Positions 19,882-34,490 of a stretch of 64,000 nucleotides of DNA are shown piece by piece (position 1 is the stretch's first letter; each line of letters opens with the position of its first letter). The stretch is from assembly GCA_001464055.1 (NCBI GenBank), contig LNET01000029.1:30254-94253 (forward strand). The letters are read 5' to 3'. Both the position numbers and the translations under genes were made by a program. The notes below the pieces were generated by a model. The model ran no database searches, was not told the DNA's origin, and saw nothing but the letters and a program-made list of their open reading frames with translations. This DNA is from Burkholderiales bacterium Ga0077543 (GTDB lineage: Bacteria > Pseudomonadota > Gammaproteobacteria > Burkholderiales > Burkholderiaceae_C).

Positions 19882-21368
19882 ATCGGCGGTCCCGACGGGA
19901 CGGCGCCCTTCGCAGGCGTCAGGTTCCTTTCGTGGTGCGTGCGGCGGCCGCAGTGTCGACCCTGGGGCTGGCGTCGATCTCGGCCGTGCTGGCCCAGACG
20001 CCCGCCCAGGTGGCCCCCGAACCAGCTGCTGCGCCCAGCCCGCAAGCAGCCGACCCGCGCAGCGAGTGCGCGCGGCTGGCGCCAGCCGCCTGGCCTGGCG
20101 GCACCGCCACACGCCGGCTTCACATTGCCAGAATGCGCCTGGGCTTGCGCGCATGCATCGGCGACGCCGACTTCCTGGCCGCTTTCGGCGGCCTGCTGCT
20201 CGAAGACGGCGAACACGCCGAGGCGCTGACCTGGCTGGAACGGGCGGTGCTGCTGGACCCAGGAAACCTGGGCGTGCAGGCCGACCATGCGCTGGCGCTG
20301 GACGCCCTGGGCGAACCGGCCGCGCTGCGCGAGCTGGCGGCCCGGCTGCTGGTGCGCAGCGACCTGCCGGCGGCGCTGCGCGCCAAGCTCAGCCCGCCTG
20401 ACGATGCCTCTCGCTTCCAGCTGCCACAGGCCCGACTGGGCGCGCCCCTTGCGCAGCGCCAGACCTGGGGTTTCCAGGGCGAAGTCCAGCTGCAGCTGGG
20501 GTACGAAAGCAATCTCGACCGCTCGCCCAGCCTGACGGAACTGACACTGTCCATCCCGGAAGGGCCGCTGGTGCTGCCCGTCATCAGCACACCCCGCAAG
20601 GCGGCCGCAAGCCTGGCGTCGGCAGCCCTGCAACTGGGCTATGCGCCAGTCGCGGGCGTGGTGCTGCGCTCGGGTCTGAACATGAATTCGCGACGTTCGC
20701 TGGCGGAGCCCGAGACCGACTGGCGCCAGGTCCAGTGGGTACAGCAGCTGGCCATCGGCGGCAAAAGCTGGAGCGGCCTGCTCGACGGCAGTGCATCCTG
20801 GGTCAGCGGGCCGCTGAACGAACCTTATCGGCTGCTGCGGCTGGGTGCAGCGTTGGACGCGGCGTCCAACGGCTGCCGGGGGCGGCTGTCCTATGTGCAC
20901 GAACAGAGGGAGCAGGCGCAAAGCACCCAGCTCGACGCCTCGACCTCCGTCTGGGCAGCCGACATCCGCTGCGCGCTGCCCTTCGCACCGACCTGGGCCC
21001 TGTCTGCAGCCTACAGCCAGGGGCAGGACCGTCCGGAATCCGCGACGCGCCCGGGCGGCATGCAACGCTTGCAGGGTGCAGGCCTGCGGCTGGCAGGCCC
21101 CGTGGCCGGGCGCACCCAGCTCGACCTGGGCCTGCGTCTGAGCCGCGTCAAGGACGAAACGGGTTTCAGCGCGCTGCTGGAGCAAAACGCCGTGCGCTGG
21201 CTGCGGCTGCACCAGTTCAGCGCCGAACTGCAGCAGCCGCTGGACGATTTCGGCTGGAAGGGCTTGTCGGCAACGCTTCAATGGCAGCAGGTGAACCAGG
21301 AAAGCAACCTCAAGCTTTTCAGCTACCGCGCCGATAGCGTTTACGCCGGTCTGCGATGGGCATGGTGA
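19878..21368 (+). CDS. outer-membrane protein with N-terminal TPR and C-terminal beta-barrel; Slam/DUF560-like candidate
   Basis: GTG 19878 overlaps the cyclase stop (GTGA). Signal-like AAAAVSTLGLASISAVLAQ, TPR GEHAEALTWLERAVLLDPGNLGVQADHALAL, barrel onset FQGEVQLQLGYESNLDRSP, and an aromatic C-terminus YAGLRWAW. Confidence 0.6.
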   Translation: MNRRSRRDGALRRRQVPFVVRAAAAVSTLGLASISAVLAQTPAQVAPEPAAAPSPQAADPRSECARLAPAAWPGGTATRRLHIARMRLGLRACIGDADFLAAFGGLLLEDGEHAEALTWLERAVLLDPGNLGVQADHALALDALGEPAALRELAARLLVRSDLPAALRAKLSPPDDASRFQLPQARLGAPLAQRQTWGFQGEVQLQLGYESNLDRSPSLTELTLSIPEGPLVLPVISTPRKAAASLASAALQLGYAPVAGVVLRSGLNMNSRRSLAEPETDWRQVQWVQQLAIGGKSWSGLLDGSASWVSGPLNEPYRLLRLGAALDAASNGCRGRLSYVHEQREQAQSTQLDASTSVWAADIRCALPFAPTWALSAAYSQGQDRPESATRPGGMQRLQGAGLRLAGPVAGRTQLDLGLRLSRVKDETGFSALLEQNAVRWLRLHQFSAELQQPLDDFGWKGLSATLQWQQVNQESNLKLFSYRADSVYAGLRWAW

Positions 21369-21735: not shown

Positions 21736-24700
21736 ATGGCATTTATCAATACCGTAGTCGCACGCGCCGCAGCCGGGATCTGGGGTCTGAAGTTGGGCTA
21801 CGCCACGACGCAAGCCGTGCTGGGTCAGTTCAACGCGAACGGTGGCAACCTCGACGTCATCATCAACAACGCGTTCAACGCCAGCTACACGGGCGTGAGC
21901 AACGCTGCCGTTGCAGCGATGGTCGTGGGCAACCTGGGTCTGACGGGTGCAGCCGCCACCGAAGCCACCACATTCCTGGTGGCGCAGATGGACTCCGTGG
22001 CGCCTACCGCCCGTGGTGCCATCCTGACCAACGCCATCAACCTGTTCGCCGGTCTGGGCACCAACCCCGCCTTCGGCGCTTCGGCCAACGACTTCAACGC
22101 CAAGGTCGCCGCTGCCGCTGCCTACTCGGGCACCATCGGCAACCCCGACGCCGTCCTGGGCAACCTGCCTTCGGCCACCAGCTTCTTCATGCTGACCGGC
22201 CAGGACAACATCACCGCCACGGCCGGCAACGATACGATCAACGCCTACATCTTCGACAACGCCAACACGCTGCAAAGCGGTGACTTCGTCGACGGTGGTG
22301 CCGGTACCGACACGCTGTACGCCGACATGGGGAACTCAGCCACTCAGGCGGTCACCCCCATCACGCGAAACATCGAAACCTTTGTTGTCCGTGCACAGTC
22401 CCGTGCAACCGAATCTGGCGACAACAACGTTTCCAACGAGAACCGCGTCACCATCGATGCCGAGCGCATGGTCGGCGTGAACCGCTTCGAGTCGAACAAC
22501 AGCCGCGCCGACCTCATCGTCGAAGACGTGCGCATCCTGCCGGCGCAGATCACGAAGGACATCACGATCGCCTTCACGCAAAGCGATCCGGGTAACGTCG
22601 ACTTCGGCGTGTACTTCGACCAGGCTTCGCTGCGTGCCAACAGCACCAGCAGCTCGTCGCTGACCCTGCAGGTCATCGACCTGAAGGCCGCCGGTGCTGC
22701 CGCCACTGCCGCCACCCCGCTGCTGGACTCGCCGTACGACGGCATCAGCTTCACGCTGAACGGCACCCTGGTCTTCCTGACCAGCCCGGCCATCGGCAAT
22801 GCCACCACCTACCCGGCACTGCTGTCCGCCATCCAGGCGCAGCTGGCTGCCAACGTCCTGACCGCGGGTGTCGTCACCGCCGCCCTGGGCAGCACCTTCA
22901 CGGTGAATGACTCGCAGACCCTGGCTGCCGTCACCGGCACCTCGATCGTGCTGTCGGCCACCAATGCCACCTTCGGCATCGGCAACTGGATCGCCTCGCA
23001 AGGCGTGCCGGCCAACTCCAACCTGTTCACCAACCAGTTCGCCGGTTCTTCGGCCACGAACGACCTCGTGACCAGCACCATCATCCTGGACGACGTGGGC
23101 CGTGGCAGCACGGGCGGCGACCTGGTCATCGGTGGCCTGTCGGTCGGTGAAACCTCGACCTCGCGTGGTGTCGACCGCTTCGAAATCACCGTTGAGCGCA
23201 CCAGCCGCCTGCAGAACGTCGACTCGACCAACAACTGGCTGAAGGAAGTCGTTCTGAAGAACGGCACTGCCAGCGGCAACGTGTCGATTCTGGGCAATGC
23301 CGGCGGCGCCGTCACCGGTGCCCCCAACAACGCCGCCAGCCAGGCCGGCGCGCTGCCTGGTGCTGTCGCTCAGCACGACGACTTCGGCTTCAACGACGTT
23401 CGCCTGATCGACGCTTCCGCGATGCGCGGCACGGTCACGTTCGACGCCGCTGTTACGGCCGCTTCGTTCGCCAAGTACATCCTGACCCGCGACACCCAGC
23501 CGAACCCGGCCGGCGACAACACCTCCACCCCGGGCCAGACCACGCAAGTGGCTGACTTCATCTACACCGGTGGTGTGGGCAACGACAGCATGACGGTCGC
23601 CATCGACTCTGGCATTGCCAGCAGCCGCAACACCATCATGTCCGGCCGTGAAGACTTCACGTTCAACCTGGCAGGTGGTGCCGGCAACGACACCATCAGC
23701 GTCCGCATCGACCCGCTGAATGGTGGCTTCCAGAACTGGTACAACAACCAGAAGCTGAACGCCAACGTCCGCATCGACGGCGGTGACGGCAACGACACCA
23801 TCCGTACCCCGGGTGCTGGCGACGCCATCATCTTCGGCGGTTCGGGCACGGACACCATCTACGTCGACAACACCGGCACCCAGGCCATCAACCAGGGTTC
23901 GGAGAACGACGCAGGTCGCGTCTACGCTGCTGCCGCCGCCGCTGAACTGGCTGCTGCCAACGCTGCGCGCGCGCTGTCGAACAGCACCAGCGCCGCCGTG
24001 CTGCAGGCCCGTGAAGTCGCGCTGAACACGCTGAACCTGGTGACGCCCGTCAGCTTCACCGACCCGGCTGTTCCCGCCAACCCGAACCCGGCACTGCCCA
24101 CCAAGGGCGACCTGGAGACGGCCATCCTTGCCGCGTACAACGCCGGCATCACCGTCGCCGCCCCTGGCGCGCTGACGGCCGACCAGGTGGTGGCCCTGTT
24201 CACCGCCTACGGCACGCGGGTTGGATCGGCAGTCACCCCGGCAACGACGGTGATTGGCAACGCCACCTTCACGGCAGGCACGGCACCGGCATCCGCCACG
24301 CTGACGCTGGCCGAGTTCACTGCAGGCAACAACCTGCTGGAGTCGTACATCAATGCCAACCGCTCGGCTGCTGCAACCGCTGCTGCTGCTGATGCGGCCG
24401 TGGGCACGTACGCTCCGCTGCTGAACGCAACGCAGACCGACGTGGTGAACAACACCGTATTGGTCAGCGGTGCTTACGACGGCGCCGCCAGCGCTGCCGG
24501 TACTGCCACCATCCTGTCTGGTCTGCAAGCACTGAATGCGGCTCTGGTCCTGGGTGCGGCGCAGCCGGCCTGGATCGCTGCGCTGAAGACCGCAGTTGCG
24601 AACGGTTCGCGCACGGTGGCCGAGGCGCAGGCTCTCGAGACTGCAATCGGTGCCGGCGCTATCGACGCCGCTGACGTGACTGCCATCCAGCTCATCCTGG

Positions 24701-26382
24701 CTCCGGCGATCAACGCGGCAACGAACGCCAACACCACGGCCCAGGCCAACCTGACCGCTGCGATCAACGCCGACAACGCCGCTGTTCGTACGGCAGCGAA
24801 CTTTGCCGGTATCGACCCCGTCCTCGCGGACGCTGAGGCGGTTGCTCAGGACGCGGTGGGTTCGGCAGAGGCTATTGCCGCAGCCACTGCAGCAGCCAAC
24901 GCTGTCACCACGTTCACCGGCACGCCGACCACCGGCACGCTGGGTCCTTTGCTGGCTCAACAGTCGGGCCTCACGGCCCTGAGCGCAGCGCTGGCAGTGG
25001 GCGTGAGCGACCTGGACTTCCAGATCATCACCACCAACGCGGTGTTCAACAACGTCATCAACGGTGCGGCCAAGATCGCACTGGACGCTGTTGCAACGGG
25101 CGCTGCCGGCGTGCTGACACTGGTCGAAAAGGTCAACCAGGTCGACGTGCAAATCGCGGCGCTGCAACGCACCAGCAACGTTGCGGTGGCCGATGCACAG
25201 GCCCAACTGGCGACTCTGCAGTCCATCGCTGCGGCTACGGCATTCGCCCGTGACCAGGCGGTTTCTGCCGCCGAAGGCTTTGTCGCAGGCACCACGGCTG
25301 GTACCAGCAACGCTGTCTGGGTGTTGAACACTTCCAACCAGTTGGCAGTGTCGACCGCACCGGGCTCGGGCTACGCACTGGCTGTGAACGATGAGCGCAA
25401 CATCTTCGATCTGCGCTCGGATCTGAACAACTCGTACAACCTGTTCGCGACCCGCCTGACGGTGGACTTCAAGGGCCTGACTTCGGTGGTGACGGTGCCC
25501 AGCACCAACTACCGTACCAGCGACCTGCAGGTGAACCAGGCCATTAAGGACGCCATCAACAACAACGCGGTGCTGAACAAGCTCATCGTTGCGGCTGACG
25601 GCCCCGCGAACAGCCTGACCATCACCTCGCTGATCGACGGTCAGGCGACTGAAGCCAACCTGAGCATCACGATTGCTGTCCCCGTCGTGGGTGCTGTGGC
25701 TCCTTCCGACATCTCGGCTGCAGCCGCCGTTTACGGCGTTGCTGCAAACGAAGGTGCGGTTCTGGCTGCGATGGCCACTGCGAAGCAGGCTTTCGACACC
25801 AAGGGCGACTACACCGACCGCTTCGCCGAAACCGGCGCACTGGGTGGCAACACCGAAGTGCGCGGTGCGGCCAGCGTCAGCACCAGCGACAACACCGTCA
25901 CCCCGGGTGCTGACAACGACGTCATCGTTCTGGGCACGACTTCGGGCAGCACGGCCCTGTTGTCGAGCAACGACATGGTGGTGTTCGGTGCGGCCTTCGG
26001 CAACGACACGATCGTTCACTTCCGCGCCGGCTCGCTGGCTACGGGTGGTGACGTCCTGAACTTCGCTGCGCTGGGTGGCACGACCCTGTCGACCGCGTTC
26101 GACGTGAACCGCTCGGTGAACGTGGCTGAAGAAGTCGCGGCCACCAACGGCACGGCCGCACTGGTTGCAGCCCTGTTCACCGACTCGGCCACTGCGAAGA
26201 CGCACGTGTACATCGCTTTCGACGCTGCCACCAACGTCGGCAAGGTCTATGCCGTGACCGACGCCGCTGGCGTGGGCGCAGGCAGCGTTTCGGCCACCCT
26301 GGCCGGCACGATCGACCTGGCCGATACGCTGTGGTCTTCGTTGACCACCGACAACTTCGGCAGCGTCCTGATGGGCGGCTGA
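21736..26382 (+). CDS. 1548-aa secreted repeat protein with RTX-type Ca-binding motifs; S-layer protein candidate (RsaA-like) and T1SS substrate
   Basis: No Cys and very few Lys/Arg/His; Ala/Thr/Asn/Gly/Val-rich. GGxGxD motifs (DGGAGTDTLYAD, TGGVGNDSM, AGGAGNDTI, DGGDGNDTI, GGSGTDTIY). C-terminus ...AKTHVYIAFDAATNVGKVYAVTDAAGVGAGSVSATLAGTIDLADTLWSSLTTDNF is typical of uncleaved T1SS signals. Strong SD, strong terminator, and a T1SS immediately downstream. Confidence 0.85.
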   Translation: MAFINTVVARAAAGIWGLKLGYATTQAVLGQFNANGGNLDVIINNAFNASYTGVSNAAVAAMVVGNLGLTGAAATEATTFLVAQMDSVAPTARGAILTNAINLFAGLGTNPAFGASANDFNAKVAAAAAYSGTIGNPDAVLGNLPSATSFFMLTGQDNITATAGNDTINAYIFDNANTLQSGDFVDGGAGTDTLYADMGNSATQAVTPITRNIETFVVRAQSRATESGDNNVSNENRVTIDAERMVGVNRFESNNSRADLIVEDVRILPAQITKDITIAFTQSDPGNVDFGVYFDQASLRANSTSSSSLTLQVIDLKAAGAAATAATPLLDSPYDGISFTLNGTLVFLTSPAIGNATTYPALLSAIQAQLAANVLTAGVVTAALGSTFTVNDSQTLAAVTGTSIVLSATNATFGIGNWIASQGVPANSNLFTNQFAGSSATNDLVTSTIILDDVGRGSTGGDLVIGGLSVGETSTSRGVDRFEITVERTSRLQNVDSTNNWLKEVVLKNGTASGNVSILGNAGGAVTGAPNNAASQAGALPGAVAQHDDFGFNDVRLIDASAMRGTVTFDAAVTAASFAKYILTRDTQPNPAGDNTSTPGQTTQVADFIYTGGVGNDSMTVAIDSGIASSRNTIMSGREDFTFNLAGGAGNDTISVRIDPLNGGFQNWYNNQKLNANVRIDGGDGNDTIRTPGAGDAIIFGGSGTDTIYVDNTGTQAINQGSENDAGRVYAAAAAAELAAANAARALSNSTSAAVLQAREVALNTLNLVTPVSFTDPAVPANPNPALPTKGDLETAILAAYNAGITVAAPGALTADQVVALFTAYGTRVGSAVTPATTVIGNATFTAGTAPASATLTLAEFTAGNNLLESYINANRSAAATAAAADAAVGTYAPLLNATQTDVVNNTVLVSGAYDGAASAAGTATILSGLQALNAALVLGAAQPAWIAALKTAVANGSRTVAEAQALETAIGAGAIDAADVTAIQLILAPAINAATNANTTAQANLTAAINADNAAVRTAANFAGIDPVLADAEAVAQDAVGSAEAIAAATAAANAVTTFTGTPTTGTLGPLLAQQSGLTALSAALAVGVSDLDFQIITTNAVFNNVINGAAKIALDAVATGAAGVLTLVEKVNQVDVQIAALQRTSNVAVADAQAQLATLQSIAAATAFARDQAVSAAEGFVAGTTAGTSNAVWVLNTSNQLAVSTAPGSGYALAVNDERNIFDLRSDLNNSYNLFATRLTVDFKGLTSVVTVPSTNYRTSDLQVNQAIKDAINNNAVLNKLIVAADGPANSLTITSLIDGQATEANLSITIAVPVVGAVAPSDISAAAAVYGVAANEGAVLAAMATAKQAFDTKGDYTDRFAETGALGGNTEVRGAASVSTSDNTVTPGADNDVIVLGTTSGSTALLSSNDMVVFGAAFGNDTIVHFRAGSLATGGDVLNFAALGGTTLSTAFDVNRSVNVAEEVAATNGTAALVAALFTDSATAKTHVYIAFDAATNVGKVYAVTDAAGVGAGSVSATLAGTIDLADTLWSSLTTDNFGSVLMGG
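23563..23880 (+). repeat. cluster of RTX-like nonapeptide (GGxGxDxUx) repeats inside the large protein
   Basis: YTGGVGNDSMTVAID...LAGGAGNDTISVRID...IDGGDGNDTIRTPGAGDAIIFGGSGTDTIYVDNTG. A further single motif lies at about 22279-22335. Confidence 0.6.
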
Positions 26383-26431
26383 TCCCGACCGTGATGTCGC
26401 CCTCTCCGCCAGGCGGGGGCGACTCACTACA

Positions 26432-26461
26432 AACCGCGCTGTTCACAGCGCGGTTTTTTTT
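26432..26461 (+). terminator. Rho-independent terminator of the S-layer-like gene
   Basis: 10-bp perfect stem aaccgcgctg/cagcgcggtt with loop ttca, followed by a run of T's (26454-26461), 50 nt after the stop. Confidence 0.85.
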
Positions 26462-26560
26462 CGCCTGCTCATTGACCGCGCTCAGAGCCCAAGTCGGACC
26501 ATCGAAAACGAGGCTGATCACGCGCCAGCCGTTCGTTTGAAACACACAACAGTTTGGAGC

Positions 26561-26603
26561 AATTCATATAGGAAGCCGTTACACTTGGCTTCCTATATGA
26601 ATT
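26561..26603 (+). promoter_or_regulatory. 17-bp perfect AT-rich inverted repeat (hairpin) enclosing the start codon of the next ORF
   Basis: aattcatataggaagcc - gttacactt - ggcttcctatatgaatt. The right arm contains ATG 26597 and the left arm contains AGGAAG. Confidence 0.6.
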
Positions 26604-27316
26604 CCGTGCTCCACATCCGCCTGCAAACCACGCCGGCCCAGCATGCCCGGCTGCTGGAGCTACAGGCTGCCTTCGCGCAGGTCTGCAATGCGCTGGCACC
26701 CGTGGTGCAGCAAACCGGCTGCTGGAATCGCGTGGGTCTGCATCACCTGGCTTACCGGGCCATGCGCGAACAATTTCCGGCCCTGGGCTCGCAGATGATC
26801 TGCAATGCCCTCTATTCGGTGTCCCGGGCTTCGCGCTGGGTCTATCAGCATCCCAGCAGCCCCTTCAACCTCACCCGTCTGGCGGGCAGGCCTCTGCCCA
26901 GGCTGCAGTTCCTGCCGCAGTCGCCGGTCTACTTCGACCGCCACACGCTGAGCCTGCGCGACGGCGTTGCGTCGATGTACACGCTGGACGGACGCATGCG
27001 CTTCAACCTGCCTCTGGCACCCGTCGACGAACAGCGTTTTCGTACCGCCCGCCTGCGCGAAGTGGTACTGCTGTTCCGCGACAACCAGTTCCAGCTGAGC
27101 TTCACCTTCGGCGACGGCGCCGAGCCATCTGCCAGCGTGCCTGGCGCCGAAGGCGAGGAGGGCGCCGCCCTGTCCACGTCCGAACGCGAAGCTGCAGCCG
27201 ACGAAATGCCCCATTACCTGCTTGTCCTGCACGGCCCCACCGTGCCTGAAAGCCCGATCCCTGAAGCCGCCAGGCTGCCTGCCGCGCCCCCCCGACAGAA
27301 CCGAACTGCCCCATGA
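26597..27316 (+). CDS. hypothetical protein resembling the N-terminal (WED/REC, HTH_OrfB_IS605-like) part of IS200/IS605 TnpB; no RuvC or Zn-ribbon region
   Basis: VLHIRLQTTPAQHARLLELQAAFAQVCNAL; LGSQMICNALYSVSRASRWVY; ARLREVVLLFRDNQFQLSFTF, followed by an acidic/Pro-rich tail. Host-like GC-rich codons. Stop overlaps the ABC start (ATGA 27313-27316). Alternative starts are TTG 26537 and TTG 26585. Confidence 0.55.
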   Translation: MNSVLHIRLQTTPAQHARLLELQAAFAQVCNALAPVVQQTGCWNRVGLHHLAYRAMREQFPALGSQMICNALYSVSRASRWVYQHPSSPFNLTRLAGRPLPRLQFLPQSPVYFDRHTLSLRDGVASMYTLDGRMRFNLPLAPVDEQRFRTARLREVVLLFRDNQFQLSFTFGDGAEPSASVPGAEGEEGAALSTSEREAAADEMPHYLLVLHGPTVPESPIPEAARLPAAPPRQNRTAP

Positions 27317-29106
27317 AACTAGCCTCCACCCCCGAGAGCCGCGCCAGTGGCACGCGCCAATTGCGCGGCGTGCTGTCCGGCCCGCGTCCGCAGTACTGGC
27401 AGGCCATTCGCCTGAGCCTCGTCACCGGTGTCCTGGTGCTGGCACCTTCCTGGTACATGTTCGAGGTCTACGGCCGCGTGCTGAACAGCCGCAATGTCGG
27501 GACCATGGGCTGGCTGTTGCTGGCTGCCCTGTGCATCTACGTGGTGCTGGAACTGCTGGAACTGGCCCGGTCCAGGGCGCTGCGCCGCGCCGCGGCGGAT
27601 GTCAATGCAAAGCTGTTGCCGCGGGTCTTCCATGCCAGCTTCACCGCCAACCTGCGCAAGCTGCCCAGCGGCAGCGTGCAGGCGGTCTCCGACGTGAAGA
27701 CGCTGGCGGATTTCGTGCACTCCCCTGCGGTGACGGGCGTGATGGACCTGCCCTCGTCGCTGCTCTGCCTGGCCTTGTTGTACGCCATGAACATCTGGGT
27801 GGGATTGCTCGCCACCGTGCTGGCCTTGTTGCAGCTGGGCATCGGCTGGCTGCAGCATGTGCGCGGCGCGCGGCCTTATGGTGAAGCCAATGGCGCCCAG
27901 GCCGCAGCACAGTTGAAGGCATCAGCCACCCTGCGCAACGCCCAGGTCATCGAAGCCATGGGCATGCAGCACACCATGTTCACGCGCTGGATGGCCACGC
28001 AGCGGCGCTTCCTGGGCAAGCTGTCGGACGCCTCCGACAGCGCCTCGGCCATGGGCACGCAATCCAAGCTGATCGGGCTGCTGATGGGTTCCCTGCTGCT
28101 GGGCCTGGCCACCTGGGCGGCCCTGGGCAACAGCTTGAACGGCGGCATGGCCATGGTCATCGTTGCCAGCATCCTGGGCGGAAGGGTGATGGCGCCGATG
28201 GCGCAGATCGTCGGCCAGTGGCGGCAGATCGGGGGCGTGATGTCGGCTCACACACGGCTGGCACAGCTGCTGTCGGATGTCCCTGCACCTGAATTCCAGC
28301 TGCCGCTGCCCGCGCCGCAAGGCCACCTCAGCGTCGAGGCCCTGACGCTCACCCCGCCTGGAGCCGAGGCGCCGGTGCTGAAGAACGTCAGCTTCTTCGC
28401 CAGGCCTGGTGAGCTGCTCACGGTGGTGGGCCCGTCTGCCGCGGGCAAGAGCACCCTGGCCCGGGCCCTGATCGGCGTGTGGGGCGGGCAAGTCGGCAAG
28501 GTTCGCCTGGACGGAGCCGATGTCTACACCTGGCCCAAGTGGGAACTGGGTGCCCATGTGGGCTACCTGTCCCAAGGCGTCGAGCTGTTCGACGGCAGCG
28601 TGGCCGAGAACATCGCCCGCTTTGGCCGGGTCGACCTGGACAAGGTGCGCGAAGCCGCCAACCGGGTGGGCATCACGGCCATGATCGAAGCGCTGCCCGA
28701 GGGCTTCGACACCCAGATTGGCGCCGACGGTGCCGTGTTGTCAGGCGGCCAGCGGCAACGCCTGGGCCTGGCCCGCGCCATCTACGGTTCACCCAAATTC
28801 ATCGTGCTGGACGAGCCGAACGCCAGTCTGGACGAAGCCGGCGACCGCGAACTGCAGGCGCTGCTGAAGGAACTGAAGTCCGAGAAGGTGACCATCGTGG
28901 CCATCACCCACCGCAGCAACCTGCTGATGGCCGCCGACCGCCTGCTGGTGCTGCAGGACGGCGCGGTGCTGCAGTTCGGCACGAAGGACGAAGTCCTGAA
29001 CGCCGTCAAGGCCGCCAACGAACAGGCCCTGCGCGCGCAGGCCGCGCGCATGGTGGCAGCGCAGCCTGCGCAGCCCGCGCTGACGACACAGGGAGCCTCG
29101 GCATGA
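27313..29106 (+). CDS. type I secretion system ABC permease/ATPase (PrtD/RsaD type, no C39 domain), copy 1
   Basis: N-terminal TMD, Walker A GPSAAGKST, signature LSGGQRQRLGLARA, Walker B FIVLDEPNASLD, H-loop VAITHR. Confidence 0.9.
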   Translation: MKLASTPESRASGTRQLRGVLSGPRPQYWQAIRLSLVTGVLVLAPSWYMFEVYGRVLNSRNVGTMGWLLLAALCIYVVLELLELARSRALRRAAADVNAKLLPRVFHASFTANLRKLPSGSVQAVSDVKTLADFVHSPAVTGVMDLPSSLLCLALLYAMNIWVGLLATVLALLQLGIGWLQHVRGARPYGEANGAQAAAQLKASATLRNAQVIEAMGMQHTMFTRWMATQRRFLGKLSDASDSASAMGTQSKLIGLLMGSLLLGLATWAALGNSLNGGMAMVIVASILGGRVMAPMAQIVGQWRQIGGVMSAHTRLAQLLSDVPAPEFQLPLPAPQGHLSVEALTLTPPGAEAPVLKNVSFFARPGELLTVVGPSAAGKSTLARALIGVWGGQVGKVRLDGADVYTWPKWELGAHVGYLSQGVELFDGSVAENIARFGRVDLDKVREAANRVGITAMIEALPEGFDTQIGADGAVLSGGQRQRLGLARAIYGSPKFIVLDEPNASLDEAGDRELQALLKELKSEKVTIVAITHRSNLLMAADRLLVLQDGAVLQFGTKDEVLNAVKAANEQALRAQAARMVAAQPAQPALTTQGASA

Positions 29107-30860
29107 GCACGCTGACACCGCGCGCAACCTTGGGTACAGCCGGCGACACGCGCCCTGCTGCGCCCGCCTCGGGCCGGCGCAACAGCATCGACCAGGTGCT
29201 GTGGACATTCCGTGGCGAGGTGCTCTGGATCGTCGTGTTCAGCGCTTTTGCCAACGTGCTGATGCTCACCCCCATCATCTACATGCTGCAGGTCTTCGAC
29301 CGTGTCATGTTCAGCGGCAACATGCTCACGCTGGTGGCCGTCACGGTGTTCATGGTGCTGTTCCTGTGCATCATGTCCTTCGCCGAATGGCTGCGTTCGC
29401 GGTTGCTGGTGCGCGCCGGCAACCGCTTCGACGAAGTCCTGAACGAACGTGTGTTCACGGCCGGCTTCACCGCGCAGCTGAACCAGCAGCGCCAGCTGCC
29501 CACGCAGCCCCTGAGCGACCTGAACGCACTGCGTCAGTTCCTCACCGGCAACGGTGTCTTCGCCGTCGTCGACACGCCCTGGACCCTGGTGTTCATCGGC
29601 GCGCTGTTCCTGCTGCACCCCTGGCTGGGCTGGTTGTCGGTGGTGTTTGCCGTCGTCCAGCTGGTGATGGGCTTTGGCGCTCACCGCATGCAGATGCGAA
29701 GCATCAAGGCCGGACAGAAGCTGGGCCTGGAGGCCTCGCAGTACCTGCAGGCCAAGTTCAGGAACGCCGAGACGGTCGAAGCCATGGGCATGCAGTCGAA
29801 TCTGCGCACGCAGTGGATGGCGCTGAACGAGCGTTTCCTGGAACAGCAGGCGCAGTCGCAGGAAATGGCCGCCCGGGTGCAGTCGGCGATGAAGTGGATG
29901 CAATACACCCAGCAGGGCCTGATGCTGTCGCTGGGCGCCCTGCTGGTCATCGACGGCAAGATCAGCGCTGGCGCGATGGTGGCCGCGAACTCGCTGATGG
30001 GCATCGCGCTGCGTCCGGTCGGGCTCATCGTGCAAAGCTGGAGCCAGTTCGCCGACGCTCAGGCCTCCTACCGCCGCCTGAACGAGCTGCTCGACGCCCA
30101 GACGACGCAGCCGGTCGATCCGCCCCTGCCCGAAGTGCGTGGCCAGATCAGCCTGAAAGGCTTGACGGCCACGGCCCCCGGCCGCAAGACCCCCATCCTG
30201 CACGGCATCGACCTGGAATTCCGCGCCGGCGAAGTCGTGGCCATCGTCGGTCCTTCAGGGGCTGGCAAGTCGACGCTGGCGCGCTGCCTGCTGGGCATCT
30301 GGCCCGGCGCCACGGGGCAGGTGCTCATTGATGGCCACGACATCCGCGCCTGGCCGCGGGCATCGCTGGGTCCGCAGATCGGTTACCTGCCGCAGGACGT
30401 TGAACTGTTCGAAGGCAGCATCGCCGACAACATCGCGCGCTTCGAAAAGATCGACTCGGGCGAAGTCATCCTCGCGGCCCAGGCGGCCGGCATTCACGAC
30501 ATGGTGCTGCGCATGCCCAAGGGTTACGACACGCCCGTGGGCGAGGCCGGCGACACGCTTTCCGGTGGCCAGCGCCAGCGCCTGGGCCTGGCCCGCGCGC
30601 TCTTGCGCCAGCCCGCCATCGTGGTGCTGGACGAACCCAGCGCCAACCTCGACGACCAGGGCGAGGCGGCCCTGGGTCGCGCCGTCCAGGCCCTGAAAGC
30701 CAAGGGTCGTACCGTCTTCATGATCGTCCACCAGAAAAACCTGCTCAGCCTGGCCGACCGAGTGCTCGTGCTCGACGCCGGGCGCGTCGCGCAGTTCGGC
30801 CCGGTCACGGCCGCGCCAGCGCCCGGCCAGCAGGTTCCCGCAGTCAACGCAAAGCCATGA
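29103..30860 (+). CDS. type I secretion system ABC permease/ATPase (PrtD/RsaD type), copy 2
   Basis: MSTLTPRA start at ATG 29103 (ATGA overlap). Walker A GPSGAGKST, signature LSGGQRQRLGLARA, Walker B IVVLDEPSANLD, H-loop MIVHQ. Confidence 0.9.
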   Translation: MSTLTPRATLGTAGDTRPAAPASGRRNSIDQVLWTFRGEVLWIVVFSAFANVLMLTPIIYMLQVFDRVMFSGNMLTLVAVTVFMVLFLCIMSFAEWLRSRLLVRAGNRFDEVLNERVFTAGFTAQLNQQRQLPTQPLSDLNALRQFLTGNGVFAVVDTPWTLVFIGALFLLHPWLGWLSVVFAVVQLVMGFGAHRMQMRSIKAGQKLGLEASQYLQAKFRNAETVEAMGMQSNLRTQWMALNERFLEQQAQSQEMAARVQSAMKWMQYTQQGLMLSLGALLVIDGKISAGAMVAANSLMGIALRPVGLIVQSWSQFADAQASYRRLNELLDAQTTQPVDPPLPEVRGQISLKGLTATAPGRKTPILHGIDLEFRAGEVVAIVGPSGAGKSTLARCLLGIWPGATGQVLIDGHDIRAWPRASLGPQIGYLPQDVELFEGSIADNIARFEKIDSGEVILAAQAAGIHDMVLRMPKGYDTPVGEAGDTLSGGQRQRLGLARALLRQPAIVVLDEPSANLDDQGEAALGRAVQALKAKGRTVFMIVHQKNLLSLADRVLVLDAGRVAQFGPVTAAPAPGQQVPAVNAKP

Positions 30861-32239
30861 ACATCAAAACATCCGAAGGCGGAACGATCGACGTCCGCAT
30901 GCCCGCCCCTGCCGTTGCCGGCAAGGGTGCCGAAGCCATCGAAGCCGAACGCCTGACCGACACGCGCACGCCCATCCGGCTGGGCTTCTGGTCGCTGATC
31001 GTCGGCTTTGGCCTGTTCATGGCCTGGGCCATCTGGGCGCCGCTGGACGAAGGCGTGCCGGCGCCGGCCACGGTGGCGGTGGAATCGCGGCGTACGACCA
31101 TCCAGCACATCCAGGGTGGCGTGGTGCGCGAACGACTGGTCAAGGACGGCGACATCGTCAAGGCTGGCGACGTGCTGGTCGAACTCGACCCCGCCACTAC
31201 CCGGGCCAGTTTCCAGAGCATCCGCCAGAACTACCTGTCGCAGCGCGCCATGGAAAGCCGGCTGCTGGCCGAGATCTCGGGCGCCCGCACGCTGGAGTTC
31301 CACCCCGACCTGCTCAAGCCCGACGACGCCATGAGCCAGCAGTTCATGACCGTGCAGAAGCAGCTGTTCGAGGCGCGCCGCGCCGCGCACACGGCCGAGC
31401 TTGCCGCCATGCGCGAGGCCATCACGAACAACGAGCTTCAGCTGGCCGGCCTGCGCCAGGTGGTGCAGGCGCGCCGTGCCCAGCAGGGCCTGCAGACGCA
31501 GCAGCTGGCGGGCGTCAGGGCCTTGGCAGACGAAGGCTTTGCACCGCGCAACCAGGCCTTGCAACTGGAACAGTCGCAGGCCGAGCTGCGCTCTTCGCTG
31601 GCCGACCTGGAAGCCAACATCCTGCGTCTGCAGAGCACGGTGGCCGAAGCCCGGCTGCGCATCGCCCAGCGCCAGCAGGAGTACGCGCGTGAGGCCTCGG
31701 GCATGCTGGCGGAACTGCGCAGCGAAGTGCAGGCGAACGAGGAGAAGCTGAACGCGGTCACCATCGAGCTCGACCGCATGCAGATCAAGACGCCGGTGGC
31801 TGGCCAGGTCATCGGGCTGGCCGTCGGCGGGCCGGGCAGCGTCGTCAGTTCGGGCCAGCAACTGATGGACATCCTGCCGGCCGATGCCACGCTGAAACTC
31901 GACGTGAAGATTCCGCCCCAGGTCATCGACCGCGTGAAAGTCGGCAACGAGGTCGAGGTGCGCTTCTCGGCCTTCGCCGCGACTCCGCACCTGGTTGTGC
32001 TGGGCCGGATGATCTCGCTGTCGGGCGACGTCGTCACCGAGACCCACAACGGTGTCTCCAACTCCTTCTACACGGCGCGTGTCGAGCTCACGCCCGAAGG
32101 CCTGAAGGCCCTGGGCAACAACGTCGTACTGCCCGGCATGACGGCCGACATCCTGATCAAGTCAGGCGAGCGTTCGCTGATGACTTACCTGCTGCAGCCG
32201 CTGGTCAAGCGCATCGCAGCGTCGATGACCGAGCAATGA
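30857..32239 (+). CDS. HlyD-family type I secretion membrane fusion protein
   Basis: Single N-terminal TM IRLGFWSLIVGFGLFMAWAIW, TIQHIQGGVVRERLVKDGDIVKAGDVLVELD, a long coiled-coil, and C-terminal MTADILIKSGERSLMTYLLQPL. Confidence 0.9.
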   Translation: MNIKTSEGGTIDVRMPAPAVAGKGAEAIEAERLTDTRTPIRLGFWSLIVGFGLFMAWAIWAPLDEGVPAPATVAVESRRTTIQHIQGGVVRERLVKDGDIVKAGDVLVELDPATTRASFQSIRQNYLSQRAMESRLLAEISGARTLEFHPDLLKPDDAMSQQFMTVQKQLFEARRAAHTAELAAMREAITNNELQLAGLRQVVQARRAQQGLQTQQLAGVRALADEGFAPRNQALQLEQSQAELRSSLADLEANILRLQSTVAEARLRIAQRQQEYAREASGMLAELRSEVQANEEKLNAVTIELDRMQIKTPVAGQVIGLAVGGPGSVVSSGQQLMDILPADATLKLDVKIPPQVIDRVKVGNEVEVRFSAFAATPHLVVLGRMISLSGDVVTETHNGVSNSFYTARVELTPEGLKALGNNVVLPGMTADILIKSGERSLMTYLLQPLVKRIAASMTEQ

Positions 32240-33633
32240 TGAAGCACCGCCAACCCCGGGTGCCCCGGCGCCTGCTGTCCATCCGTACCCTGGCCACGGC
32301 ACTGCTGCTGCTGTGGGCCGCCCAGGCCCAGGCCATGAGCTTCAGCGAAGCCCTGCAGGCGGCGCAGATGAACGACGCTCCGTTCCGTGCGGCGGGCTTC
32401 GAGTACGACGCCGCGCGCTACGGCGTGCCGATCGCGCGGGCCCAGCTGCTGCCCGTGGTGGCCTTGACGGCCAACGAATCTGCCGTGGCCGGCTCGCGCA
32501 GTTTTCCCAACGCTCAGAACCAGGAAGTGCGCGTACCGCTGGACTACAGAGCACCCCAGGTCAGCCTGAACATGCGCATGCCGCTGTTCAACTTCGACGC
32601 AATCAGCGGTTTCCGCCAGGCCCAGGCCCAGTCTGAGGTGGCCGAGGCGGTGTTCCGCAGCCAGGGGCTGGACCTGGTCGAGCGGCTTGCAACGGTCTAT
32701 GTGCAGGTGCTGGTGGCCGAAGACACGCGTCGCCTGACCGAATCGCAGGTGCAGGCCTATGCCATGCAGGCCGAACAGGCGGTGCGGCGCCTGGACCGGG
32801 GCGAAGGCACGCGTGTCCAGGTGGCACAGGCCCAGGCCACCGTCGACGTGGCCCGCACCCGCCTGATCGAGGCCGTCGACCTGGTCGACGTGACCCGCAG
32901 CCGGCTGGAGCGACTGACGGGCATCGTCCAGCCCAAGACGCAGATGCTGCCCCCGGCGCATGCGACCGTGCCCCTGTTTCCGGAACGCCTGGGCGACTGG
33001 ATCGAGCTGGCCATGCGCCAGAGCCCCAACCTGCAGGCCCAGGAGCGCGCGCGCGAAGTGGCGCGCCAGTTCACGCGCCGCCAGACCGCCGGCCACCTGC
33101 CCAAGCTCGACCTCGTGGCCAGCGTCGGGCGCAACGAAAACGACGCGTCCAACACCGTGGGGCAGGTCACCTCGATCCGCTCCATCGGTGTCCAGCTGAG
33201 CGTGCCCCTGTTCAACGGTGGTGGGGTCGACGCCAGCGTCAAGCAAGCCACCCTGCGCGAGGCGCAGGTCGCCGAGGAACTGCGCCAGGAACGGGAGACC
33301 ATCGAGGTCGATATCCAGCGTCACTACCAGGCCGTGGTCAATGGCGAAAAGCGGGTGGCCTCGTACCTGAGGGCGCTGGAGTCCACGGCCCTGGCGGTGC
33401 AGGGCGCGCGCCGCGCTCTGGAAACCGGACTGGGCACGAACAGCGAGCTGGCCGAAGCCCAGGCCGTGTATTTCTCGGCTGCACGCGACCTGACCCAGGC
33501 GCGCAGCGAAACCCTGCTGTCCCGCGTGCGCCTGATGCTGCGCGCGGGCATGCCGATGCAGGAAGTGGCGGCCGACGTCGACCGCTTCCTCGTCGGCGCC
33601 GCCGCAGATGCCACCGAACCGAAGAAGCCATGA
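32236..33633 (+). CDS. TolC-family outer-membrane efflux/secretion protein
   Basis: Signal peptide LATALLLLWAAQAQA and a two-repeat alpha/beta TolC-like organisation. ATGA overlaps on both sides. Confidence 0.85.
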   Translation: MMKHRQPRVPRRLLSIRTLATALLLLWAAQAQAMSFSEALQAAQMNDAPFRAAGFEYDAARYGVPIARAQLLPVVALTANESAVAGSRSFPNAQNQEVRVPLDYRAPQVSLNMRMPLFNFDAISGFRQAQAQSEVAEAVFRSQGLDLVERLATVYVQVLVAEDTRRLTESQVQAYAMQAEQAVRRLDRGEGTRVQVAQAQATVDVARTRLIEAVDLVDVTRSRLERLTGIVQPKTQMLPPAHATVPLFPERLGDWIELAMRQSPNLQAQERAREVARQFTRRQTAGHLPKLDLVASVGRNENDASNTVGQVTSIRSIGVQLSVPLFNGGGVDASVKQATLREAQVAEELRQERETIEVDIQRHYQAVVNGEKRVASYLRALESTALAVQGARRALETGLGTNSELAEAQAVYFSAARDLTQARSETLLSRVRLMLRAGMPMQEVAADVDRFLVGAAADATEPKKP

Positions 33634-34490
33634 GCACAGCACAGCGATTCATCACCCGCGGCGGTTTCCTGTTGATCCTGGGCCTGGTCCTCAGCGCCTG
33701 CGGTGGCGGCGGCAACGGCCCGTCGATCAGCACCATCTCGGCCAGTGGCCTGGCCTATGCCCGCACGGCCACCATCACCGCCAACGGTTCCGGCCTGGCC
33801 GACCCGACGTTGTTCATGACCGTGGAGGGCCTGCCCTGCGAGAACGTCACCCGCTCCAACGGTGCCACCGACTCGCAGGTTCAGTTCAGCTGCCTGGTGC
33901 GCGGCGTGGGCGAGATGTCGCCGCGCATCCGCATGTCCGACGGCAAGGAACTGGGCCGGGTGTCGCTGAACGTGCCCCTGCCGCGGGTGTCGTTCGCGAT
34001 CAGGCGCGATGGCAGCACCGGCAACGTCCTGGTCGAGATCGACCCGCGGCAGGCGCCGCTGACGGCCGCGAATTTCATGGCCTACGTCGAAGCCGGCTTC
34101 TACCGCGACACCCTCATCCACCGCGTGCTGCGGGGGCAGATCGCCCAGGGCGGCGGCTACACCTCCGGCCCCACGCCGAAGGCACCGATATTCCCGCCCA
34201 TTGCGCTGGAGTCGAACAACGGCCTGAAGAACCTGCGCGGCACCATCGCAATGGCGCGCACGGCGCAGCCGAATTCGGCCCAGGCGCAGTACTACTTCAA
34301 CCTCAGGGACAACCCCGAATTCGACCGCATCAGCGACGAACAACCGGGCTACGCCGTGTTCGGCACGGTCATCGAAGGGCAGGACGTCCTCGACGCCGTG
34401 GGCCAGGTGGCGACGACCGCGGCCGACCCCATCCTGCAGAACCTGCCGGTGAACAACGTCGTCGTGACCTCGGTCCTGCAGGTGCGCTGA
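33630..34490 (+). CDS. lipoprotein cyclophilin-type peptidyl-prolyl cis-trans isomerase with an N-terminal Ig-like domain
   Basis: Lipobox LVLSAC. Cyclophilin motifs APLTAANFMAYVEAGFYRDTLIHRV, GTIAMARTAQPNSAQAQYYFNL, YAVFGTVIEGQDVLDAV. Confidence 0.85.
   Translation: MSTAQRFITRGGFLLILGLVLSACGGGGNGPSISTISASGLAYARTATITANGSGLADPTLFMTVEGLPCENVTRSNGATDSQVQFSCLVRGVGEMSPRIRMSDGKELGRVSLNVPLPRVSFAIRRDGSTGNVLVEIDPRQAPLTAANFMAYVEAGFYRDTLIHRVLRGQIAQGGGYTSGPTPKAPIFPPIALESNNGLKNLRGTIAMARTAQPNSAQAQYYFNLRDNPEFDRISDEQPGYAVFGTVIEGQDVLDAVGQVATTAADPILQNLPVNNVVVTSVLQVR

Follow-up and report, generated by a model that had tools for sequence, protein, structure and literature searches.

We analyzed a stretch of 64,000 nucleotides from Burkholderiales bacterium Ga0077543 (contig LNET01000029.1, positions 30,254 to 94,253 of the forward strand), hereafter the window, and focused on a short gene, called gene X below, that heads the genes of a type I secretion system (T1SS). 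Its reading frame is open from 26537 to 27316 on the + strand. This frame, called in an earlier note made from the sequence, is real, but the TTG start at 26537 was wrong by 20 codons: all homologues start at the position matching ATG 26597 (MNS... or MK...), and the 60 nt located 5' of this ATG are a conserved promoter/operator rather than coding sequence. Both observations rule out TTG 26537 and, because the start is ATG 26597, the product (hereafter X) is 239 amino acids long. The TGA of gene X overlaps the ATG of the first ABC transporter gene (ABC1) in an ATGA at 27313-27316. The gene and the operon that it heads comprise the following features:

26597..27316, + strand: gene X, a TnpB-derived protein made of the WED/REC region only (homologue starts, hhalign, tblastn)
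26597..27112, + strand: WED/REC core, residues 1-172, homologous to residues 1-163 of the full-length relative P0238 (hhalign, AF2, Foldseek, dN/dS)
26840..26881, + strand: 11-residue insertion specific to the X family, residues 82-95, VYQHPSSPFNLTRL (gap in the TnpB profile with hhalign)
27113..27316, + strand: acidic, Pro-rich, low-confidence tail, residues 173-239 (AF2, homologue alignment)
27203..27229, + strand: tail motif EMPHYLLVL, family consensus ELPEYxLV (homologue alignment)
27313..29106, + strand: T1SS ABC transporter 1, translationally coupled to X (Pfam, synteny)
29103..30860, + strand: T1SS ABC transporter 2 (ABC2), whose ATG at 29103 overlaps the ABC1 stop (Pfam, synteny)
30857..32239, + strand: HlyD/AprE-type membrane fusion protein (MFP) (Pfam HlyD_3)
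32236..33633, + strand: TolC-like outer membrane efflux protein (OEP) (Pfam OEP)

The genes downstream of X are those of a T1SS operon of the PrtD/AprD-RsaD type: ABC_tran and ABC_membrane were found twice, followed by HlyD_3 and OEP, and this order is conserved in relatives. The operon likely exports S-layer or RTX-like proteins. The earlier note had proposed checking whether homologues of X are always linked to such genes. In 84 of the 85 related loci that we fetched, ABC1 was found at +600 to +850 nt from X and was followed on the same strand by ABC2, the MFP and the OEP; the remaining locus was too short to judge, so that the linkage held in 84/84 loci long enough to be assessed. The stop codon of X overlaps the start of ABC1 (ATGA or GTGA) in 68 of 81 loci, and the other junctions consist of TAATG or TGATG or of gaps of up to ~25 nt. 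Divergent X subfamilies are likewise linked to the T1SS and joined in the same manner to ABC1 orthologues.

The X family is large, with 4058 clusters at 90% identity; the best 120 listed are 203-255 amino acids long. Divergent members are shorter (166-212 amino acids) and match the profile at E-values of 1e-30 to 1e-40. Relatives were found in 504 species-representative genomes of Burkholderiales (Rubrivivax, Ideonella, Inhella, Aquabacterium, Rhodoferax, Ramlibacter, Polaromonas, Acidovorax, Comamonas and others) and Rhodocyclales (Thauera, Accumulibacter, Zoogloea and Sterolibacterium), and the members are named 'hypothetical protein' in every source. Relative to its nearest relative, the core of X presents a dN/dS of 0.05 at a dS of 0.76, which indicates that the family is under purifying selection. 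The insertion at residues 82-95 is strongly conserved across the family (VYQHPxSPFNLxRL, with Q84, S88 and F90 invariant) and is missing from the TnpB relatives. The tail, which contains no Cys, differs in length among homologues, and ELPEYxLV is its sole conserved element. In many relatives this motif lies 4-5 codons before the stop, where the VEE codons (GAGGAG) double as the Shine-Dalgarno sequence of ABC1. The GC content at third codon positions of gene X is 0.81, the same as in the upstream gene, and its composition is host-like. The claims of the earlier note on the stop overlapping the ABC gene, the acidic and Pro-rich tail (residues 173-239, of low confidence in the structure model) and the host-like codon usage were thus all borne out.

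Homology to TnpB and loss of the nuclease half

The earlier note had read the first ~175 residues as following the order of elements of the N-terminus of TnpB, and hhalign, tblastn and structure comparison agree with this claim to an extent well past what chance would give. Direct searches of the 239-residue protein and of the X profile against Pfam, NCBIfam and PDB sequences yielded no match, and the homology surfaced only through a structure search and a search of a large set of representative proteins. An alignment of the X family with 19 full-length TnpBs using hhalign placed X residues 1-171 onto TnpB residues 1-163 with a probability of 100, an E-value of 1.8e-44 and 39% identity. The alignment breaks off with the last WED strand; in the TnpBs, the invariant RuvC-I Asp (D180, in GVDVGEN) follows 17 residues later. 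When a 380-residue TnpB was searched against the whole window with tblastn, the sole match was found at 26615-27145 (E=1.6e-29).

The AlphaFold2 (AF2) model, computed with 32 homologues as input, presents a predicted local distance difference test score above 90 for residues 1-170 and a topology of beta1 and three long helices followed by beta-barrel-like strands. All of the best 44 Foldseek matches in PDB were Cas12f, TnpB (ISFba1), Cas12k, Cas12n, TranC, Fanzor2 and similar proteins, the best of which was AsCas12f (8j3r_B; E=6e-6, probability 1.0, TM 0.53 on the query). Profile and structure searches of this kind had been proposed in the earlier note, and both pointed to the Cas12f/TnpB superfamily. 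The X-family profile was also searched against 1.84 billion representative proteins, and full-length proteins of 370-380 residues were retrieved at E-values of ~1e-30 over profile positions 1-174. Two of these full-length relatives, P0238 and P0246, carry the Pfam domains OrfB_IS605 (RuvC) and Cas12f1-like_TNB. One full-length relative adjoins a Y1 TnpA gene on a 1.9-kb contig of the IS605 type, and another lies on a Methylomarinovum plasmid beside an annotated IS200/IS605 tnpA. Several residues are invariant in both X and these sister TnpBs: CN at 30-31, N44, H49, Y53, R57 and the GSQM-CN motif. Taken together, these results make it practically certain that residues 1-171 of X share ancestry with the WED/REC N-terminus of one particular clade of IS200/IS605 TnpBs.

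In contrast to these TnpBs, X lacks the nuclease half. Neither the RuvC domain with its D-E-D triad (hhalign, Pfam) nor the zinc ribbon or TNB domain (CxxC...CxxC; Pfam Cas12f1-like_TNB) was found in X, and tblastn detected no remnant of either in the window, which agrees with what had been noted from the sequence. The suggestion that full-length TnpB relatives might exist held in part: they are present elsewhere in IS605 elements with TnpA, but tblastn found none in the window.

A truncated transposon gene could be read as the recent remnant of a decaying IS605 insertion sequence (IS), and truncated or frameshifted tnpB fragments do occur in databases (P0264, P0258 and P0267). However, the dN/dS of 0.05, the spread of the family over more than 4000 clusters and 504 species of two orders, and the fixed gene order contradict a pseudogene. 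X also has a host-like composition and a conserved insertion of its own, and neither IS ends nor tnpA were found at gene X (inverted-repeat scan of 26300-27400, called genes of related loci and tblastn of the window), nor was a RuvC remnant. Selection and synteny rule out this explanation, which we consider refuted; X is an integrated member of the operon, as the earlier note had claimed.

The promoter inverted repeat, TTCAT and proposed autoregulation

The region upstream of ATG 26597 contains a perfect inverted repeat that overlaps the start of gene X and encloses a candidate promoter element. Its GC-content is only 35%, versus 68% for the window. The following features were identified:

26561..26603: perfect inverted repeat with 17-nt arms (26561-26577 and 26587-26603) and a 9-nt loop (inverted-repeat scan)
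26563..26573, + strand: left candidate operator half-site, TTCATATAGGA (repeat scan, locus comparison)
26580..26585, + strand: -10-like hexamer TACACT, 11 nt before the ATG (position conserved across loci)
26591..26601, - strand: right candidate operator half-site, TCCTATATGAA on the + strand and TTCATATAGGA on the - strand (repeat scan, locus comparison)

The right half-site includes the start codon (26597-26599). A complete core of the form TTCATATAGGA-N15-18-TCCTATATGAA was found in 59 of the 85 related loci, its end falling at codon 2 of X in every case. Of 76 distinct upstream sequences, 69 contain the left half-site. A -10 of the form TAnnnT lies between the half-sites in 69 as well; it stops 10-11 nt short of the ATG in 48 of these and 6-9 nt short of it in 19. 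The -10 is TGn-extended in 30 of the 76, and many of them present TTGAC or TTGAA immediately 5' of the left half-site, which lies within the -35/-10 spacer, typically 6 nt before the -10. For the window itself, a strict sigma-70 scan, which needs a -35, did not report the promoter, and no good -35 was found. No Shine-Dalgarno sequence was seen between the -10 and the ATG of X. Because the -10 lies 11 nt before the ATG, the transcript of gene X is expected to have little or no leader. Sequence conservation is seen in the half-sites and the -10, whereas the rest of the spacer varies, a pattern that points to an operator recognized by a protein. In its layout, an inverted repeat at the gene's own promoter that overlaps the core promoter, the site resembles that of a palindromic-operator autorepressor.

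No other copy of the half-site with at most one mismatch was found in the window, including upstream of the 1548-residue protein gene that precedes X, and no exact copy was found elsewhere in 1.25 Mb of flanks from related loci. Two matches with two mismatches, GTCATATAGGC and TGCACATAGGA, are located in the window at 39236-39246 and 20889-20899 (- strand) and are probably due to chance. Among divergent X subfamilies, the motif is a bare 12-bp palindrome, TTCATATATGAA, which contains the ATG or lies 30-35 nt upstream of it, and one divergent member presents TTCATATAGGA-N6-TCCTATATGAA. We also compared operator variants (TTCATATATGA versus ...AGGA) with X residues for co-variation; these variants were few and phylogenetically clustered. 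Tandem left sites or an additional right-type site upstream were observed in L040, L067, L080 and L083 (70 nt upstream of X), for instance in Zoogloea (TTCATATAGGAGAATTCATATAGGA) and Sterolibacterium, indicating that the operator architecture varies by lineage.

The half-sites share their outer sequence with the insertion sites of the sister TnpB elements. We collected 76 metagenomic loci with TnpBs of the sister clade and located the left ends of the elements by all-versus-all blastn. The pentamer that immediately precedes the left end was TTCAT in 18 of 22 cases, CTCAT in 3 and TTCAC in 1; these 22 are independent insertions with unrelated flanks. A solo tnpB (L087) presents TTCAT 12 nt before a hairpin, at its putative boundary. 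The IS copy on the Methylomarinovum plasmid has its left end cut by an IS4 and was informative for the right end only. In IS200/IS605 elements, the flanking motif is both the target site of TnpA and the target-adjacent motif (TAM) of TnpB (restated in 10.1101/2023.11.30.569447). TTCAT also forms the outermost 5 nt of each X half-site, pointing inward, and the CTCAT variant was found in two X operators. We estimate that an unrelated 11-bp operator would open with TTCAT by chance in ~0.1% of cases, or ~1.4% when any position or strand is allowed. Elements with a TTCAT TAM, of the IS605 type as well as solo tnpB, were observed in L086 (160-210 and 1830-1860), L088 (2630-2675) and L089-L134; those of group A present the left end 'agaatctccgcaaggaaacccctgacttgagtcagggg' and a right end finishing with '...gcgacttcagtcgcgggttgtttac'.

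In TnpB and Cas12f, it is the WED/REC lobe that reads the TAM on double-stranded DNA; Cas12f works as a homodimer. We propose that X is a domesticated fragment of an IS200/IS605 TnpB that kept this lobe and lost the RuvC domain, the zinc ribbon and the guide-RNA gene. X would bind TTCAT-containing sites without RNA through its inherited TAM-reading surface, probably as a dimer or as two protomers. With the left site in the -35/-10 spacer and the right site over the start codon and the predicted transcription start, bound X would block RNA polymerase. As a negative autoregulator, X would set the level of the entire operon, from X and the two ABC transporters to the MFP and the outer membrane protein. 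This functional model of an RNA-independent, TAM-reading autorepressor derived from TnpB is the one that we favor, and we judge it on balance to be somewhat probable. As for its origin, a TTCAT-targeting IS may have landed 5' of the exporter genes, oriented as they are, and then lost its 3' half by deletion, which would have fused the WED/REC open reading frame to ABC1. The flanking TAM would have become the operator, and the left TTCAT may be a fossil of the target site. Whether the WED/REC module became a free-standing, RNA-independent transcription factor, its operator arose from the founding TAM by duplication as an inverted repeat, and it has long been kept as a T1SS autoregulator across Betaproteobacteria is a broader proposal for which we see the case as evenly balanced. 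The acidic tail with ELPEYxLV may link X to the exporter. A further extension, that the exporter sequesters or exports X through this tail and couples transcription to secretion in the manner of FlgM, is speculative and very doubtful.

Several observations weigh against this autoregulation model. DNA binding, repression and the start of transcription are derived from position and ancestry, and that X rather than another factor acts at the palindrome is something we infer. The left half-site stands alone or in tandem in some Thauera, Acidovorax, Ottowia and Zoogloea, and no motif was found within 140 nt of X in one divergent T1SS-linked member. The inverted repeat reaches 3-4 bp further inward in 5-6 lineages, with compensating sequences: agcc/ggct, aggc/gcct, actg/cagt, gctg/cagc and agtg/cact (window 26574-26590; L007, L013, L037, L079 and L081). 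Position 12 is paired in 33 of 55 distinct operators, and the mean extra paired run is 0.95 versus 0.35 in shuffles. Judging from these alignments, the inner covariation hints at selection for a hairpin, in RNA or single-stranded DNA, in addition to the protein half-sites, a function for which the operator model has no use. A structural or chaperone role in secretion would likewise be consistent with the strict translational coupling to ABC1. Finally, the 6 bp that follow TTCAT, ATAGGA, correspond to the seed length of the RNA-guided TnpB-derived repressors known as TldRs and are compatible with a guide encoded elsewhere, a possibility that we weigh below and find improbable.

Some of these observations would be explained if X did not bind DNA but assisted secretion, as a chaperone, adaptor or assembly factor of the heterodimeric ABC exporter or of its giant substrate. 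The palindrome would then serve another regulator or, in transcripts reading through from upstream, fold into a hairpin that masks the start codon. X is linked and translationally coupled to ABC1 in every locus long enough to judge, many members carry the conserved tail motif near the C-terminus, and the palindrome folds into a strong hairpin containing the AUG, with the extra covarying inner pairs in some lineages. However, the outer five bases of the operator would then match the TAM of X's own TnpB relatives by chance (~0.1-1.4%), and X shares, equally without variation, the residues that never vary in sister TnpBs. The loci examined contained no other conserved regulator gene. Moreover, loci with the left half-site only are unable to form the hairpin, and transcripts initiated from the -10 lack the 5' arm because this box lies inside the loop. 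We therefore regard an accessory role as unlikely.

The same sites could also be used for activation. WED domains of TnpB and Cas12 start the unwinding of DNA beside the TAM, and X could be a class II-type activator or a promoter-opening factor that aids RNA polymerase at a weak -35. The promoter of the window lacks a good -35, and the left site overlaps the -35/spacer region. In contrast, the right half-site spans the start codon and the presumed start of transcription, a typical position for a repressor. Many relatives also present a good TTGAC/TTGAA -35 and a TGn-extended -10, so that an activator would not be needed there. This makes activation distinctly unlikely.

X might instead still be RNA-guided, as a minimal TldR in which a short RNA, encoded elsewhere or within the coding sequence, provides a ~6-nt guide (AUAGGA...) beside TTCAT at both half-sites. 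The conserved half-site indeed consists of the TAM (5 nt) plus 6 nt, and both half-sites carry the same 6 nt. The motifs bound by TldRs in ChIP-seq comprise the TAM and a ~6-nt seed, some TldRs use 9-11-nt guides, and C-terminally truncated TldRs are known (10.1101/2023.11.30.569447). On the other hand, X ends before RuvC, whereas TldRs are described as keeping their RNA-binding interface. The RuvC domain of TnpB forms much of the surface that binds the omega-RNA and the heteroduplex. The space for a guide RNA is also limited: X has no 3' untranslated region (UTR), and ABC1 begins before X has ended in 68 of 81 loci. On the 5' side, the intergenic region is as short as 52 nt, of which 39 are palindrome. 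RNAalifold found 0 pairs in the region coding for the tail, and no Rfam family matched at the gathering score, with three sub-threshold terminator-like matches only. The earlier idea of an associated small RNA thus gained no support. In addition, the palindrome of divergent subfamilies, TTCATATATGAA, has no seed after the TAM. Overall, a minimal TldR appears very unlikely.

Related systems and neighbouring genes

We compared X with the known systems to which it is related. X shares with TnpB (P0238, with TnpA in an IS605-type element; P0246 and metagenome group B, as solo tnpB) the WED/REC region, the invariant residues and an adjacent TTCAT. Unlike TnpB, it lacks RuvC (D180/E263/D343, P0238 numbering) and the CxxC...CxxC zinc ribbon, as well as IS ends, TnpA, mobility and an omega-RNA region at the 3' end; it has gained the 11-residue insertion and the acidic tail and is fixed at the head of a T1SS operon. 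AsCas12f, OsCas12f, RhCas12f and other Cas12f proteins are its best structural matches, and the Cas12f homodimer fits the symmetric operator, but X lacks RuvC and TNB and the sequence identity is only ~9%. Unlike in the dCas12f-sigmaE systems, no sigma-factor gene was found among the called genes of the related loci examined.

X also has features in common with the TldRs associated with fliC and oppF. Like them, X derives from a TnpB that became immobile and is consistently associated with host genes, ABC-transporter operons among them; promoter elements overlap with its predicted target, where the TAM of related TnpBs is preserved, and a role as a repressor is likely. According to two reports (Wiegand et al., 10.1101/2023.11.30.569447; Xiao et al., 10.64898/2026.09.22.753285), the bilobed TnpB fold is retained in TldRs together with the interface for RNA binding, and their guide RNA is encoded in a long 3' UTR. 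In contrast, X consists of WED/REC and a disordered tail only, with no 3' UTR and no guide-RNA gene found adjacent to it. The candidate target of X lies at its own promoter and has the symmetry of an inverted repeat; this implies that recognition is protein-only and dimer-like and that X regulates its own gene. Its transporter is a T1SS exporter rather than an Opp importer, and it is found in Betaproteobacteria rather than in Enterobacteria or Enterococcus.

Other exaptations of TnpB have been reported as full-length or catalytically inactivated proteins, at least in the accessible portion of the survey: Sigma-TnpB, SpoIIE-TnpB, RHH/MazE-TnpB and DppD-TnpB (Altae-Tran et al. 2023, PMC10691335). 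As described there, they have in common with X that an immobilised TnpB sits in a conserved gene context and has been assigned a putative regulatory role. Within the accessible text of such exaptation surveys (including PMC10691335), where Sigma-, SpoIIE-, flagellin-, DppD/OppF- and RHH-associated forms are listed, we found no form restricted to WED/REC or linked to a T1SS. Similarly, the accessible text of the literature on TnpB, TldR and exaptation contained no description of the X family, and none of the relevant papers, to the same extent, contained the operator sequence. X would thus work most like a classical palindromic-operator autorepressor, while by descent it is a TnpB fragment. What appears new is a promoter inverted repeat that contains the TAM, and a domestication of TnpB in which the RNA-guided core was discarded.

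Domestication of TnpB has given rise to Cas12 effectors, RNA-guided repressors (TldR) and RNA-guided recruiters of sigma factors, all of which, to our knowledge, keep the RNA-guided core. If our model is true, the X family represents the opposite end-point, where the programmable part was lost and the fixed reader of the TAM, or of the protospacer-adjacent motif (PAM) of Cas12, was kept as an ordinary DNA-binding domain. The transposon's own target motif would have been converted into an operator, and X would provide a natural minimal TAM-reader of ~170 residues for understanding and engineering TAM/PAM recognition. The unannotated first gene of a widespread T1SS operon (at least 504 species of Burkholderiales and Rhodocyclales) would also become the operon's probable regulator. 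As for the sister TnpBs, the C-terminal half of P0238 matched Cas12f sequences at E ~1e-20, and these proteins, whose RuvC/TNB half is close to Cas12f, may be of use as nucleases with a TTCAT TAM.

Two further features were identified upstream of gene X:

21736..26382, + strand: 1548-residue Ala/Thr/Gly-rich protein, candidate T1SS substrate (open reading frame, Pfam, locus comparison)
26431..26456, + strand: intrinsic-terminator-like hairpin and T-run after the gene of the 1548-residue protein (hairpin/terminator scan)

As the terminator-like hairpin ends the upstream gene, the X-T1SS operon needs a promoter of its own. No Pfam domain was found in the 1548-residue protein, which is probably a substrate of the T1SS. 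Relatives of its C-terminal 460 residues were observed upstream of X only in L001, L006, L007, L013, L051, L069 and L079, and giant proteins containing HemolysinCabind lie upstream of X at other loci instead. Since these relatives are present in only some of the loci, the presumed substrate gene is far less conserved than the X-T1SS module. ABC1 and ABC2 are tandem paralogues with a 4-nt overlap (ATGA 29103-29106), an arrangement that is kept in all related loci and that implies a heterodimeric exporter. Just inside the 5' end of ABC1, an imperfect inverted repeat was observed at 27338-27369, with 14-nt arms that are 86% complementary and a 4-nt loop (GCCGCGCCAGTGGC / GCCAATTGCGCGGC).

A cyclophilin-type peptidyl-prolyl isomerase (PPIase) with a signal-peptide-like N-terminus follows the T1SS genes (window 33630-34490 and beyond; loci of the Rubrivivax/Ideonella type). 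It is missing at that position in most loci of Comamonadaceae and Rhodocyclales. The genes of the Wzm/Wzt ABC system of O-antigen export come after the PPIase in L001, L003 and L004, at +7000 to +10000. By analogy with RsaA of Caulobacter, the PPIase and Wzm/Wzt neighbours suggest that the secreted protein may be anchored to lipopolysaccharide.

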